A stretch of 7,186 nt of DNA, taken from IMG/VR virus record IMGVR_UViG_2778260995_000005. One strand, written 5' to 3'. A program made the translations under genes and the position numbers. Source of the DNA: a virus (taxonomy: Duplodnaviria; Heunggongvirae; Uroviricota; Caudoviricetes). Shown here one piece after another: positions 2,341 through 7,186 of this stretch; within the stretch, counting starts at the first letter, position 1, and every line of letters starts with the position of its first letter. The notes under the pieces were generated by a model that was not told the origin of the DNA, made no database searches, and saw only the letters and a list, made by a program, of their open reading frames with translations.

Positions 2341-2831
2341 GATTCGATGATTTTCAGAAACGGGTTAGTGGTTTTCTTCTGCCCCGCCAGGCCAATCAGA
2401 CGCTGACGGCTGCTGGGGTCGAGTCCGAGCATTGCCCCCGTGCTGCTCATCTCGGACTCCTGTTCTTTTTTGGCGGTCAGCTCCGGATTTTTGACCATGC
2501 CGCCCATTGCACCGGTGATGGTGTTGCCCTGTCTGGCAATATTTTTCACGGCACGTCGCCAGAACTCGTAGGCCACGCACCACCGCTCAAGCACCGCGAG
2601 GTCAGTCACGCACAGCAGGCCCTGACCGCAGAGTTCTTTAGTTGTCAGTTGCCACATGATCGTAGCGAGAGGGAGATCTTCTTCAGCGAACCACTCCGGT
2701 GGCTCAACACCTTTGATGGGCGTAAAAACAGGTTCATCTTTATTCAGGGCTCGCTTGCCGGGGTTTCCGGCCAGCGCCTTGCGCGCCGTTGGCTTGGGGC
2801 GACGCCCGGAACGCCCCGCCGTTCCAGCCAT
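2337..2831 (-). CDS. terS: Terminase small subunit (P27 family)
   Basis: N-terminus [34 protein letters not shown] resembles the P27-family TerS signature. Preferred start is ATG at 2831..2829 with AGGAG 8 nt upstream; the track's GTG at 2840 has no usable spacing to an SD. Translationally coupled to terL. Confidence 0.85.
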
Positions 2832-2861
2832 ATGCGGCACTCCTGGTTAAATTTCATTTTT

Positions 2862-2940
2862 CGCGGGTATAAAAAAACGATGGGGCGGGCAGTCCGGAAG
2901 ACGTCAGGTCACAGGGATTTGACCCGCCCCTCCCCTCTGG
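2862..2940. other. Candidate cos/packaging site: GC-rich inverted repeat with adjacent A-tract in the HNH-terS intergenic region
   Basis: Non-coding gap 2841..2956. It contains an 8-bp inverted repeat GGGGCGGG (2882..2889) and CCCGCCCC (2923..2930) flanking a 33-nt spacer with a GACGTC palindrome (2900..2905), plus an A7 tract at 2871..2877. In HK97-type phages cos lies between the HNH gene and terS. On the minus strand the same structure followed by a T-run could instead act as a terminator. Confidence 0.3.
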
Positions 2941-2956
2941 CAGTGGGAACTGGTTC

Positions 2957-3307
2957 TTACTTCAACCGTTCACGGGCCGTCTTCGCCTTATGACACGGCC
3001 AGCACAGGCTCTGCAGATTGCTGTCGGCATCAGTGCCGCCATGCGCTTTAGGGATGATGTGGTCAACGGTTTTCGCCTCACGTACCACACCACCACGCAG
3101 ACATAACTGACACAGTCCTTTGTCACGCTTGAGCACACGTTCACGGATAACATCCCATTTCGAACCATAACCGCGCTGGTGTCTGGACTGGCCCGGCTTG
3201 TATTGCTTCCAGCCTTCACTTTTGTGGCTTTCGCAATAGCCTGACGGGTCAGTTGTGGTATGGCGGCAGCCGCGAACACGGCAGGCTTTTGGGGTTCGTG
3301 GTGGCAT
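2957..3307 (-). CDS. HNH endonuclease (terminase-associated, HK97 gp74-like)
   Basis: Motifs CxxxGC...GYC near the N-terminus and CQLC...DHIIP...N...CWPCH at the C-terminus form a zinc-finger HNH fold. Preferred start is ATG at 3307..3305 (MPPRTPKACRVRGC...) with GGAG 5 nt upstream. The track's longer start at 3376 would read through the terminator hairpin and overlap the upstream gene's stop. Confidence 0.9.
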   Translation of the reverse strand: MPPRTPKACRVRGCRHTTTDPSGYCESHKSEGWKQYKPGQSRHQRGYGSKWDVIRERVLKRDKGLCQLCLRGGVVREAKTVDHIIPKAHGGTDADSNLQSLCWPCHKAKTARERLK

Positions 3308-3316
3308 GCTGGCTCC

Positions 3317-3341
3317 AATAAAAAGCCCCGCGACGCGAGGC
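3317..3341 (-). terminator. Rho-independent terminator downstream of the 67-aa membrane protein gene
   Basis: Minus-strand RNA reads GCCUCGC-GUC-GCGGGGC followed by UUUUUAUU. That is a 7-bp GC-rich stem with one G-U pair, a 3-nt loop and a U-run, about 30 nt after the stop at 3373. Confidence 0.55.
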
Positions 3342-3372
3342 TTAGACAGAAAAAACACCGGATAAGATCTGG

Positions 3373-3576
3373 TCATTCTTCCTTTTTAATAATGACTTCT
3401 CGAGGGCGCAATTGTTGGATAGCACGACAAATACAATATGGAATAACTGCCCATGCTACTCCCATTGCTGCACCTGCAGCCTGTTGTGGAGCACTCTGAG
3501 CACCGAAAACCCCGAGGATTCCTTCAATAAATCCAATAGCACTACACAAAAGACTGATGACCCAGAGAATTTTCAT
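3373..3576 (-). CDS. Hypothetical small membrane protein (67 aa, two predicted TM helices, glycine-zipper-like); moron
   Basis: ATG at 3576..3574 with AAGGAG 9 nt upstream. Sequence MKILWVISLLCSAIGFIEGILGVFGAQSAPQQAAGAAMGVAWAVIPYCICRAIQQLRPREVIIKKEE has two hydrophobic segments, a short polar linker and a charged C-terminus. GC is visibly lower than the flanking terminase and lysis genes. Preceded by a 117-bp AT-rich intergenic region and followed by an intrinsic terminator. Confidence 0.6.
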   Translation of the reverse strand: MKILWVISLLCSAIGFIEGILGVFGAQSAPQQAAGAAMGVAWAVIPYCICRAIQQLRPREVIIKKEE

Positions 3577-3693
3577 AAACCCAAACTCCTTTTAAATAAA
3601 CACATTACTAGGATAATTCTCATAAAATGTTAGTAAAGTATTTTCAGGAAAATAGCGTATCACTGCCTATTTTTGACACTGATGCTGGGATAA

Positions 3694-4068
3694 TTATTCC
3701 GATCGCTGGAGTTGCTCATGATGATACAGAGCGAGAATCAGGTCATAAGACCCTTGCCTGTCTTTGTAACCAGTTTTATCAACCAATTCAGCTTTACTGA
3801 TTCCGGGTAAATCAAGAATCAGATTCGCAACTTCAATTGCCCTTTGGTACAACTTACCGCCTTTTTTCTCCCCATGCAGTGGTTTTACATTCTTCAGGTA
3901 ACCGCTATCCGCCAGGGCGAGAAATGTTGCCCTTGGGCATATCTTCTTTCTTGACGATTCGCTTTCTGTAACCTCTGCGATAGCTGCATCCCATGCATCA
4001 CGAGGAGTCATTGAGCTATCAGCCACCAAATGATAAGCGATTAAAGCAACGTGAGCGTATTGAGACAT
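3694..4068 (-). CDS. Hypothetical soluble protein (~124 aa; 141 aa if the GTG at 4119 is used), unknown function
   Basis: ORF on the late-operon strand immediately downstream of Rz. Preferred start is ATG at 4068..4066 with GGAAG about 5 nt upstream; the GTG at 4119 overlaps Rz by 13 nt and lacks a good SD. No TM segment and no family I can assign. Lower GC than neighbours. Confidence 0.6.
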   Translation of the reverse strand: MSQYAHVALIAYHLVADSSMTPRDAWDAAIAEVTESESSRKKICPRATFLALADSGYLKNVKPLHGEKKGGKLYQRAIEVANLILDLPGISKAELVDKTGYKDRQGSYDLILALYHHEQLQRSE

Positions 4069-4106
4069 AATGCTTCCATATACAAAAATCTTATGATAAG
4101 ACTTTT

Positions 4107-4550
4107 CTAATATGAACACTGTGATCTCACATATTCTTGCAGGCCATTCAATTGGTTAGTTATGGTTTCGATGCGCTCTCTGAGAACGAAATAATCCCGT
4201 TGAGCGGTGTCAGTAAGTCTGGGGCTGGAAGCATCATCCACGCCGGAGGCGGCGGTGGTTTTATGCTTGTCCGGACAGACTGCTTTGACGTGCAGCCACT
4301 TACGACCAGCAGAAACATCAGCACGAAGACTTTCGATAGTCGCGTTAGCATCAGCAAGCTCCTTTGTGTATCTGGCGTCGAGTTCAGCTACATCATGTTG
4401 ACGCTTCTGCATGTCAGCGATGATGGATGTGGCTTTGTCGCGCTGTTCTTTGTAGGTCATGGCGTTATCACGGTAATGATTAACAGCCCATGACAGGCAG
4501 ACGATGATGCTGATAACCAGAGCGGAGATAATCGCGGTTACTCTACTCAT
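4107..4550 (-). CDS. Rz: Rz i-spanin (inner-membrane spanin subunit)
   Basis: [30 protein letters not shown]... closely resembles lambda/phage-21 Rz: N-terminal TM, coiled-coil periplasmic domain. ATG at 4550..4548 overlaps the endolysin stop as ATGA. The track's longer start at 4562 is rejected. Confidence 0.9.
4160..4351 (-). CDS. Rz1: Rz1 o-spanin (outer-membrane lipoprotein), embedded in Rz in the +1 frame
   Basis: [25 protein letters not shown]...KPPPPPAW...PLNGIIS has a lipoprotein signal with lipobox VVSGC and the proline-rich mature region typical of lambda Rz1. ATG at 4351..4349 with AGGAG 7 nt upstream; the track used a TTG two codons earlier. Lies entirely within Rz. Confidence 0.85.
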
Positions 4551-5044
4551 TGTTGCCCCCACAAACAGACTTCACGCTCAATCTCACGGCGAGTCATCAG
4601 CCCTTTCCATTGCTTACCGCCAGCGTATGTCCAGCGCCGTAGCTGATCACATGCGCCTTTGATATCGCCCTGGTTTATTTTGCGAAGAAGTGTCGATGTT
4701 CTGAAATTTCCAGCACCAACGTTGTAAACGAACGAGTAAAGAGCGCCGCGCGTTGTTTCCGGTATATCGACTTTGATGTACGGGTTAATTTGTCTGGCGA
4801 CAGTGGCAAGGTCTTTATTCAGGAGGGCTTTGCATTCTGCTTCGGTATACGTTTTACCGAGCATAATGTCTTTTCCGGTATGCCCGTAACATACAGTCCA
4901 TACACCAACGATATCTTTATATGGTATGTAGCTGACGCCTTCCAGACCATCGTTACCACTTGGGCCAGTGATTAACACAGATGCTATAGCAATAGCCCCG
5001 CCACCAATAGCCGCAGCAACGGCTTTTCGTAATGATGGAGGCAT
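4547..5044 (-). CDS. R: SAR endolysin (phage-21 R21-type lysozyme)
   Basis: N-terminal signal-anchor-release domain [28 protein letters not shown] followed by a T4-lysozyme-like catalytic region (LEG...KD...T). Near-identical by recall to phage 21 R21. Start overlaps the pinholin stop (TAATG). Confidence 0.95.
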
Positions 5045-5259
5045 TATTCACCTCTCGCAGCCTTGCGCTTATCTTCTTTAATCTTGAAATAAAGGTTTGT
5101 CAGGTACGTCAGCAGGCCAAATACCAGGCTACCCAGCACACCTATTGCTGCCCACTGTGAGGGCGTGACTTTATCGAGCAGCTGTAAAAACCAGTAGCCA
5201 GCACTGCCTGCGGAGGTGCCGTAGGCAATGCCCGTTGTTAACTTATCCATAGATTTCAT
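5044..5259 (-). CDS. S: Pinholin (phage-21 S21-type, class II holin) with dual-start motif
   Basis: [71 protein letters not shown] matches S21 by recall. Met1-Lys-Ser-Met4 gives the antiholin/holin dual starts. Two TMDs, the first glycine/alanine-rich and SAR-like. GGAGG 7 nt upstream of ATG at 5259. Confidence 0.95.
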
Positions 5260-5354
5260 AGCCTCACCTCCGCAAATAACGGATGGTGTACACGGTTCGG
5301 AACGAAGAGGAAAGGTATAGAAGTTACATTAGCGTAAGGCTTGAACATCTATTC

Positions 5355-5386
5355 AAAAAGAAAAACGCCAGCGATTATTCTGGCGT
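5355..5386 (-). terminator. Rho-independent terminator between the AraC-family gene and the lysis cassette
   Basis: Minus-strand RNA reads ACGCCAG-AAUAAUCG-CUGGCGU followed by UUUUCUUUUU: 7-bp stem, 8-nt loop, U-rich tail. It lies about 60 nt after the AraC-family stop and about 95 nt upstream of the pinholin ATG. Confidence 0.5.
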
Positions 5387-5447
5387 AGCTGAAAGCATCA
5401 TACAATTATCAAATACGAAAATTACAAAATCATTAAAACGCATCACG

Positions 5448-6179
5448 TTACATCATGTCTTTTTCTAAAAAAAATCTTGATGAATATTGATGGGGAGGAA
5501 CACCAAAATATCTTCTGAAAACACTCACAAAATATGACGTGTTTTCATAACCGCATATCTCAGCAACTTTTCCAACAGAATATAAATTGTAGCTTAATAA
5601 CCTTTCCGCCATCACCATTCGCTCTTCAAGAATTAACTTACTAAATGATAAGCCTTCGTGCTTTAATTTTCTTTTTAACAGACTTTCACTCAGATACAGT
5701 CTTGAAGATATATCACAAAGTCTCCATGCTGCAGATATATCCGTGTGAATAATAGCCTTAACTTTACTTCCTAAACTATTAAGACATCCAAATAAAAAAC
5801 TTTGCACTATTTTCTCTGAAGATAAGATAGCAAGACATGCAAGTGATATTTGATTTCTAACAAAATCCACAGTTCTGCCATCACAATTCAAGCATGCAAT
5901 CAAGTTCTTTAACAATGAAAAATCTTCACATTCCACCATCAAGTATGCCGGATAAAACCTTCTTACAGAAAAAGGTGAGAGTGTGTTGCTTTTAAAGAAA
6001 TCATTAACTGTTTTCTCTTCAACATCTATGATCATTACATGATCTATATTTGATGAAAAAAAATCTTTTAAATTGTAATCAATGAGAACAGCACTTCCTT
6101 TTTTAAACAAAATATCTTCTTTACCAATTCGGACATCAAACGAGTTCAACACCAAAATGATAGAACATATGTATGGCAT
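5448..6179 (-). CDS. AraC/XylS-family transcriptional regulator (AppY/PatE-like), AT-rich
   Basis: C-terminal paired HTH region (WRLCDISSRLYLSESLLKRKLKHEGLSFSKLILEERMVMAERLL...VGKVAEICGYENTSYFVSVFRRYFGVPPHQY) is typical of AraC family. N-terminus MPYICSIILVLNSFDV...ILFKKGSAVLI resembles AppY-like regulators by recall. Preferred start is ATG at 6179..6177 with AGGTGG 5 nt upstream; the track used a GTG at 6188. Markedly AT-rich coding sequence. Confidence 0.85.
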   Translation of the reverse strand: MPYICSIILVLNSFDVRIGKEDILFKKGSAVLIDYNLKDFFSSNIDHVMIIDVEEKTVNDFFKSNTLSPFSVRRFYPAYLMVECEDFSLLKNLIACLNCDGRTVDFVRNQISLACLAILSSEKIVQSFLFGCLNSLGSKVKAIIHTDISAAWRLCDISSRLYLSESLLKRKLKHEGLSFSKLILEERMVMAERLLSYNLYSVGKVAEICGYENTSYFVSVFRRYFGVPPHQYSSRFFLEKDMM

Positions 6180-6487
6180 ATTATCCACCTGATATCATTG
6201 GGGTTACACCAGGTAAGTATAGGTGGAAAATCAATATTCGCCAGTTCAACAATAAGGAAAATTTCATTGCATCACAAGTATAAAATTATGTATTTAACTC
6301 ACAAAGACAAATTATTAAACCAATCTGTTATATTATATATAGCTGCGTGGAATCATAATATTATATATTTTGACTGGCATGTTTACCAACTTTAAGTTGC
6401 ATCTCAATTGTTTCTTCAGCGTAAACAGAGTTTTTATACAAACTGACACTCTGGGTATCATAGTGTAGTTTTTACGATTGTAAATAT

Positions 6488-6518
6488 CCTGCATGCAGGA
6501 ACTCATCCTTTTGGATGA
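6488..6518 (-). terminator. Possible terminator/operator hairpins downstream of the DUF1722-like gene
   Basis: Two adjacent inverted repeats just after the stop at 6531: TCATCC-TTTT-GGATGA (6503..6518) and the 12-bp perfect palindrome CCTGCATGCAGG (6488..6499), followed on the minus strand by an AT-rich stretch. Short stems, so weak as a terminator; the palindrome could be a protein-binding site. Confidence 0.3.
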
Positions 6519-6530
6519 TATCGCATACAA

Positions 6531-7186
6531 TTAATTTACCATCAGTCTTAGAGCCAGTTCGTCCGGATAGGGATCGAAGTAATTCTGTGTAAGCAAGTAA
6601 TCATTAGGATACTCACCCAGATAATGCTTCAGCAGAGTCAACGGCGCAAGAAGAGGTAATGTGCCAGAACGATAGTTAAGTATAACCTCGCTCAACTCTT
6701 TACGCTGGCGTGTACTTAAGTAGTTACTAAAATACCCCTGTATATGCATCAGCACATTCGTGTGATTTTTACGTGATGCAGGTTTTCTGAGAATCGCCAT
6801 CAGCTTATCACGATACACCTCAAAGTATGATTCAAGGTCCGCCCACTCGTGTATTGCAGCCACAAATGGTCCCATATCTTTATAGCCTGCCTGACTATGC
6901 GCCAACAACTGAAGCTTATAACGACTATGAAAAGCTAATAACTCTCTTCTTGATAATTTCTCCTTGTAAAGGTGATTGAGCTCATGCAAAGCAAAAACTC
7001 TTTCAACAAAATTCTCACGAAGCACTGGATCATGTAATCGCCCATCCTCTTCAACCGGTAGCCAGGAAAACTTTTCCATCAAAGTACTCGTAAATAGTCC
7101 CACTCCATCGTAAGCGTAAACTGACCGCCGTATGTAGCCATCAGACGAGAATTGGTAACTTAGACGCCCATCTGATATAGACGGAC
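6531..7186 (-). CDS. DUF1722 (YbgA-like) domain protein, 5'-truncated by the window edge; possibly a DUF523-DUF1722 fusion
   Basis: The minus-strand frame is open from the window end (7186) to the stop at 6531..6533; the track's GTG start at 7103 is internal. The C-terminal region (LLAFHSRYKLQLLAHSQAGYKDMGPFVAAIHEW...YLLTQNYFDPYPDELALRLMVN) matches my recollection of the DUF1722/YbgA family. Moderately AT-rich. Confidence 0.55.
   Translation of the reverse strand, partial: PSISDGRLSYQFSSDGYIRRSVYAYDGVGLFTSTLMEKFSWLPVEEDGRLHDPVLRENFVERVFALHELNHLYKEKLSRRELLAFHSRYKLQLLAHSQAGYKDMGPFVAAIHEWADLESYFEVYRDKLMAILRKPASRKNHTNVLMHIQGYFSNYLSTRQRKELSEVILNYRSGTLPLLAPLTLLKHYLGEYPNDYLLTQNYFDPYPDELALRLMVN

Follow-up and report, generated by a model that had tools for sequence, protein, structure and literature searches.

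Results

A DUF6979 gene at the end of the lysis cassette

The stretch of DNA analysed here (the window, 7,186 nt, from the IMG/VR virus record IMGVR_UViG_2778260995_000005) is the late region of a lambdoid prophage, and its subject is a small gene of the Pfam family DUF6979 that lies directly behind the lysis genes. All genes discussed are on the minus strand. The cassette comprises a phage-21-type holin (5044-5259), a lysozyme (4547-5044) and the Rz i-spanin (4107-4550 according to the Prokaryotic Genome Annotation Pipeline, PGAP; Pfam Phage_lysis, E=2e-39, and phrog_13), in which the open reading frame (ORF) of the Rz1 o-spanin is embedded (4160-4357). The DUF6979 coding sequence, supported by Pfam, PHROG and PGAP (3694-4068, 124 codons and a TAA stop), begins 38 nt after Rz and is the last gene of this holin-lysozyme-Rz/Rz1 series. 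Between positions 3300 and 4600 the window shares 99.8% identity with the right end of Shigella phage SfI, and the DUF6979 ORF is 100% identical to a copy in a prophage of E. coli strain C4. The prophage is of the SfI-like lambdoid type, with HK97-type packaging.

The minus-strand ORF runs from 3694 to 4119 (141 aa from a GTG, with the stop codon at 3694-3696). The initial annotation had described this ORF, its orientation and its two candidate starts, and the ORF listing and the sequence bear out that geometry: the GTG at 4119-4117 overlaps the end of Rz, with its final codons and its TAG stop (4109-4107), and the ATG at 4068-4066 is preceded, 4 nt upstream, by a Shine-Dalgarno-like GGAAG (4073-4077). 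Of these two starts, only the ATG holds. Indeed, neither the Pfam nor the PHROG profile matches the long ORF before residue 18, the gene is annotated with 375 nt both by RefSeq/PGAP and in the SfI record, and all homologues, from Enterobacterales to archaea, share the beginning M-x-x-Y-[AG]-x-A-A. Moreover, in the Leclercia and Dickeya homologues in-frame stops lie 1 and 10 codons upstream of the equivalent methionine and no other start is available; a GGAGG-type Shine-Dalgarno element stands before this methionine in the homologues of Citrobacter and Dickeya. An SD-like GGA is also kept in the copies of phages 4A7 and mEp460 and of Salmonella. On the strength of this sequence evidence, the true start is ATG 4068, giving a protein of 124 aa, and GTG 4119 is ruled out by the profile starts, the annotations and the upstream stops. 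The rejected 17-codon extension (4069-4119) consists of the 3′ end of Rz and the 38-nt spacer that follows it; it is open solely in copies that share this same Rz 3′ end, a consequence of shared ancestry and not of selection.

Both gene and family already have entries in Pfam, PHROGs, RefSeq and the SfI record, the function of the family being uncharacterised. The profile-HMM searches that the initial annotation had suggested as a check matched Pfam DUF6979 (PF22399; 98.5-99.1 bits against a cut-off of 27, E=4e-28, profile positions 1-126 of 127) and phrog_5039 (E=1.3e-68, profile positions 1-123 of 124), neither of which has an assigned function. A search of NCBIfam with the protein gave no match. 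It is 100% identical to gp63 of Shigella phage SfI (YP_009147511.1) and to E. coli WP_001544773.1, which RefSeq/PGAP names "DUF6979 family protein", and the ORF is not discussed in those passages of the SfI genome paper that we found. The ratio of nonsynonymous to synonymous substitution rates (dN/dS) is 0.22-0.31 when the window gene is compared with the copies of phage 4A7, mEp460 and a Salmonella prophage, and 0.19-0.40 over all pairs of these copies. Judged by the two profile matches and by these ratios, which place the ORF beyond chance, it is a real gene under purifying selection.

As regards transcription, the gene is co-oriented with the holin, lysozyme and Rz genes. No sigma-70-like site was found on its strand throughout 2800-5500, and nothing resembling a terminator hairpin separates its stop from the next gene, an ORF of 67 codons that follows after 117 nt (3373-3576; two predicted hydrophobic segments; phrog_12304, function unknown). 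The first hairpin on this strand is that at 3343..3323, past the 67-aa ORF, so that the lack of a terminator of its own, as noted in the initial annotation, is borne out. Since neither a promoter-like site nor an own terminator is found, the DUF6979 gene should be transcribed with the late, Q-dependent operon, and we infer that it is expressed together with it.

Optional cargo at late-operon junctions

The occurrence of the gene is patchy even among close relatives. Only nine of the 297 phage records that matched the lysis-cassette query carry it, namely SfI (two records), mEp460_4F5, 4A7 (two records), 4C10, D2, 1W and 3W; most phages whose cassette is at least 90% identical lack it. In complete E. 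coli genomes it is present in 249 of 5426, with one chromosomal copy each. The gene and the adjoining 67-aa ORF are also poorer in GC (39-45%) than the packaging genes (52-60%). Presence or absence among close phages together with an atypical base composition is what is looked for in a moron, and both were found. Rz-to-cos and Q-to-S are classic positions of late-operon cargo in lambdoid phages, lambda bor being an example.

What varies less is the upstream neighbour. In 46 of 48 IMG/VR contigs that carry members of the same subfamily, the first recognised gene upstream is Rz. The 67-aa ORF lies downstream in only 18 of the 48, mostly with an HNH-terS-terL series after it, and an obligate link between the two genes was rejected on this count; some of the remaining loci have other terminase types or KilA-N genes downstream. 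In the lambda-like phage 4A7, the DUF6979 gene is the last annotated gene on its strand before the genome end. In a Salmonella prophage the order is holin_3_1, lysozyme, Rz, DUF6979, KilA-N and terminase, and in a Leclercia prophage holin, lysozyme, a DUF2570 spanin, several small ORFs, DUF6979 and Terminase_2/Terminase_6. The Citrobacter copy lies in a degraded prophage with a DUF2514 spanin, and that of Dickeya is chromosomal, with no phage genes nearby. Typical family members on other viral contigs are arranged as endolysin-Rz-DUF6979-terS(-terL), tail-DUF6979-terS or Q-like antiterminator-DUF6979-endolysin.

In Salmonella, a 138-nt duplicate of the window-type Rz 3′ end precedes the DUF6979 gene (6863-7000 in locus L097), some 185 nt beyond the resident Rz. 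By its sequence, this remnant looks like the recombination scar of an imported cassette made of the Rz 3′ end and DUF6979. In locus L098 (region 5710-6914) an insertion sequence element (rve transposase) lies between Rz and the still intact DUF6979 gene. In L097 a GC-rich hairpin, GCCTCGC-ATTTA-GCGGGGC followed by Ts (7406-7424), stands directly 3′ of the gene and resembles that at 3323-3343 of the window; no promoter-like site was found at the Salmonella copy. Altogether, the distribution, base composition and arrangement of the copies indicate that the DUF6979 gene is optional cargo at module junctions of the late operon.

A probably mobile single-domain family, often with conflict effectors as close neighbours

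An exhaustive HMMER search (E<=1e-3) gave 524 representatives at 50% identity, nearly all of 120-140 aa and consisting of the DUF6979 domain alone, and a profile search gave 1092 proteins among 90%-identity clusters. The family spans many bacterial phyla and archaea (Methanoculleus, Methanolobus, Thermoplasmata), and most of its members are in non-viral loci. Among 43 diverse members no second Pfam family recurred. Domain fusions were considered as a clue and abandoned: the extra regions of three longer proteins (P0101, 476 aa; P0107, 215 aa; P0082, 179 aa) match neither a Pfam domain nor a neighbouring ORF, and a fourth (P0126, 1629 aa) is a low-complexity repeat protein with a spurious match.

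We collected 80 genome loci, with ORFs from a simple custom caller. Clustering by blastp of four genes on each side in the retained genome and metagenome loci revealed no recurrent partner family, only duplicates of the same element. Immediate neighbours are mixed, many of them being housekeeping genes. Those from defence systems and the mobilome include ZorD, DpdF, DruE, a type IIG restriction-modification (RM) enzyme, Mrr_cat, HNH, HEPN, GmrSD, GmrSD_N and AAA_21 proteins, integrases and transposases. Taking as tightly coupled a co-oriented downstream gene with a gap of at most 45 bp, we found conflict-effector domains in eight of the eleven coupled partners longer than 100 aa: GmrSD, SIR2_2 (here followed by an Mrr_cat protein), HNH, an AlkZ-like glycosylase, NYN+CSD, Schlafen AlbA_2, RiboL-PSP HEPN and PIN. 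A ninth, of unknown family, has a McrB-like AAA_5 ATPase downstream and adjoins an MmeI-like RM enzyme. Partners at wider gaps are housekeeping genes (for example Tex, RecQ, asd and tannase), as expected of a mobile gene inserting between them.

Two settings deserve description. An alphaproteobacterial metagenome-assembled genome (loci L008 and L015) carries a co-oriented island of ZorA, ZorB, ZorC and ZorD (Zorya type I), DUF6979 and GmrSD, with an integrase nearby; the DUF6979 stop is about 10 bp from the GmrSD start. In Methanoculleus and related archaeal contigs (L004-L006, L089 and L090), the gene lies in an integrated element with a tyrosine integrase, a Cdc6-like ATPase and a nucleotidyltransferase. 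About 330 bp downstream of this archaeal DUF6979 gene is that of a conserved 746-aa protein, which has no Pfam match in most copies; in M. bourgensis it is split, and its second part has NHL/PKD matches. From this range of contexts we infer that DUF6979 is a single-domain gene that stands on its own and moves horizontally, in bacteria and archaea alike.

Predicted structure and conserved site

An AlphaFold2 model built from 12 close homologues was obtained with a mean predicted local distance difference test score (pLDDT) of 89.3 and a predicted template modelling score (pTM) of 0.86. It comprises seven helices (3-18, 22-33, 37-40, 43-54, 72-86, 92-99 and 107-116) and no strands. The sequence has no transmembrane segment, signal peptide or lipobox, and the 124-aa product is predicted to be cytoplasmic and all-helical. 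The structure-based search that had also been advised was run with Foldseek and returned no match at E<=0.001 in either the PDB or BFVD. Sequence and profile searches against PDB chains gave chance-level matches alone (E >= 0.3). Two similarities were dismissed as chance, one to archaeal methyltransferases of MGMT type (phmmer, E=1) and the other a caspase-4 motif match to the profile (E=0.3).

In an alignment of the 43 diverse members, W26, K42, C44, P45, F49, L52 and G56 are invariant or nearly so. The conserved positions cluster in and around a basic loop, S-S-R-K-K-x-C-P, that opens helix 4, and conserved polar motifs open helices 4, 5 and 7. These read SSRxKGCP at the start of helix 4; at helices 5 and 7, most of the family has NKxYA and NGQMD, and the window protein KLYQRA and RQGSYD, respectively. 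In the enterobacterial phage subfamily, RQGSYD replaces NGQMD and LALADSG replaces LGLCEEG. The functional site is likely centred on the invariant Trp26 and on the S-S-R-K-K-x-Cys44-Pro45 loop with which helix 4 opens.

Other features of the window

Downstream, a strong terminator-like hairpin, AAGCCTCGCG-TCG-CGGGGCTT followed by a T run (3323-3343), comes after the 67-aa ORF and ahead of the HNH endonuclease gene; it marks off the HNH-terminase module from the genes for lysis and cargo. It falls within the 5′ part of an over-extended HNH ORF of the mechanical list (139 aa, 2957-3376); PGAP places the start at ATG 3307, giving an HNH gene of 116 codons (2957-3307). The 67-aa ORF is annotated in E. 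coli C4 and left unannotated in the SfI record, despite DNA that is 99.8% identical. The P27-type small terminase (2337-2840) and the large terminase (607-2340) follow. Directly 3′ of the latter is a 60-aa hydrophobic ORF (413-595), the counterpart of the PGAP-named YmfR in the terminase/portal gap of E. coli C4.

Upstream of the holin are genes for an AraC-type regulator of 246 aa (5448-6188; HTH_18/HTH_AraC) and for a YbgA/DUF1722 protein (6531-7103, running off the listed ORF). The block that they form on the minus strand (5448-7103) is very AT-rich, with 30-34% GC around the AraC-type regulator and about 40-44% in the adjoining YbgA/DUF1722 gene. It occupies the slot between antiterminator Q and holin, which in phage SfI is filled by two tRNA genes. 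E. coli C4 has, beyond the regulator and YbgA/DUF1722 genes, one for a lipocalin. The appearance of the block is that of a second cargo insertion in the stx-type slot, and a clearly foreign one.

Discussion

We favour the reading that DUF6979 is a moron-type cargo gene acting in conflict between phage and host or between phages, by effector modulation or nucleic-acid protection, and put its probability, taken as a composite, at about 45%. In its first part, this reading holds that the gene would be an accessory and neither a lysis nor a packaging component, because the cassette works without it in most phages, because its copies are found beside at least four types of terminase, and because the family is mostly non-viral. 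In its second part, the protein may modulate (regulate or neutralise) immune or toxin effectors, or shield nucleic acid from them, through its Trp26/Lys42/Cys44 site. Such a role in conflict is suggested by the mobility of the gene, by its lack of a fixed partner and by the repeated tight coupling to effectors that target nucleic acids or NAD.

The comparison with known systems is instructive. Like the morons of lambdoid phages (lambda bor in the Rz-to-cos slot, stx in the Q-to-S slot), the DUF6979 gene is optional, AT-richer cargo at a late-operon junction, and its Salmonella copy has its own terminator-like hairpin, but it has no sequence relationship to them. Lambda bor, which encodes a lipoprotein, is transcribed from its own promoter on the opposite strand, whereas the DUF6979 gene runs in the direction of the late operon, lacks a promoter-like site and encodes a product predicted to be cytoplasmic. 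In standing as a small gene directly 5′ of unrelated nucleases, toxins or defence effectors, members of the family recall the Panacea/DUF4065 antitoxin domain and the WYL-type regulators (BrxR/CapW). By analogy, the phage copies may also be likened to the T4 antitoxin mimic Dmd and the T4 GmrSD inhibitor IPI*, which are likewise small, partnerless phage proteins, the more so as GmrSD follows DUF6979 relatives in the Zorya-containing island. This is purely an analogy, the DUF6979 protein having no sequence or fold similarity to either.

Several observations weigh against the reading that we favour. The link to defence genes is a qualitative one, set against no background control, and genes in defence islands are commonly packed on one strand without being functionally coupled. 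Many loci also have housekeeping neighbours such as those found at wider gaps. PADLOC-DB v2 defence models gave 0 families at E<=1, on which count a known defence protein was rejected, and no literature was found on DUF6979, PF22399 or phrog_5039. The unrelated folds of the coupled effectors argue against a direct, specific inhibitor. Late-operon expression is awkward as well, being ill-suited to protection of the lysogen or to early counter-defence, unless the protein travels in the virion or its gene is transcribed separately. Moreover, no nuclease or toxin partner adjoins the gene in the window, as it would for a type II antitoxin; distant members of the family do sometimes precede PIN, HEPN or NYN genes. 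Finally, the persistent adjacency to the lysis cassette could reflect a lysis-related role.

A bolder form of the conflict role, which we consider speculative and unlikely as it stands, would make DUF6979 a pan-prokaryotic module that pairs promiscuously with unrelated nuclease and NADase effectors as their regulator or neutraliser. The orphan copies in phage late operons would then be a broad counter-defence factor or one of inter-phage competition, with a helical fold that has no solved relative.

Among the alternatives, the one that survives best is that the protein is a small enzyme or ligand binder using Cys44 and the Ser/Arg/Lys loop, for example in a thiol-dependent activity or as a sponge for a nucleotide signal. 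We hold this to be unlikely too; it would be compatible with a role in conflict. It draws on the near-invariance of Cys44-Pro45, Lys42 and Trp26 from bacteria to archaea and on the polar motifs at the starts of helices 4, 5 and 7, which we count in its favour since helix N-termini commonly bind anions. One neighbour is, in addition, a SIR2 protein. However, no similarity to enzyme families was found in Pfam or in PDB sequences and there is no fold match, and the second cysteine of the family, in LGLCEEG, is an alanine in the phage subfamily.

A somewhat less probable alternative is that the product belongs to lysis after all, as a cytoplasmic accessory or regulator that tunes lysis timing or spanin function and is co-expressed with holin, endolysin and spanins. 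The position of the gene, so close behind Rz in the same transcription unit and so regularly found there, is what would be expected of such a factor. Divergent homologues (about 40-65% identity) still stand after cassettes with Phage_lysis, DUF2570 or DUF2514 spanins and different holins, and the Rz remnant accompanies the gene in Salmonella. Against this, most phages with a nearly identical cassette do without the gene, and members of the family are spread widely through archaea, Firmicutes and chromosomal sites that have no lysis genes. The protein lacks any membrane-directing signal of the kinds sought, other phages carry the gene before the holin or next to terS, and the Rz-to-cos interval is, as lambda bor illustrates, a cargo slot in its own right.

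The suggestion of the initial annotation that the C-terminal half is winged-helix-like, by which the protein would be a DNA-binding transcription regulator with a helix-turn-helix, now seems improbable. Neither structural nor profile comparison gave a significant winged-helix match. A tight, fixed turn between helices 2 and 3 of such a domain is not found, the corresponding residues 100-106 forming a 7-residue loop whose length varies across the family, and a β-hairpin wing is absent from the model, which has no strands.

That the protein assists DNA packaging together with the downstream HNH endonuclease and terminase is very improbable: an HNH-terS-terL module does lie 390 nt downstream of DUF6979, and terS follows directly in other phages, but the gene accompanies at least four unrelated terminase types as well as lambda-type cos phages without HNH, and most of the family is found in non-viral loci.

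In itself the finding is an ordinary one: a hypothetical gene, already catalogued, in a prophage type that is well known. The analysis adds a settled start codon, evidence of selection, a confidently predicted fold without structural relatives and a lead towards conflict. If the association of the DUF6979 family with conflict effectors reflects its function, DUF6979 would be a new small player in the conflict between phages and bacteria.
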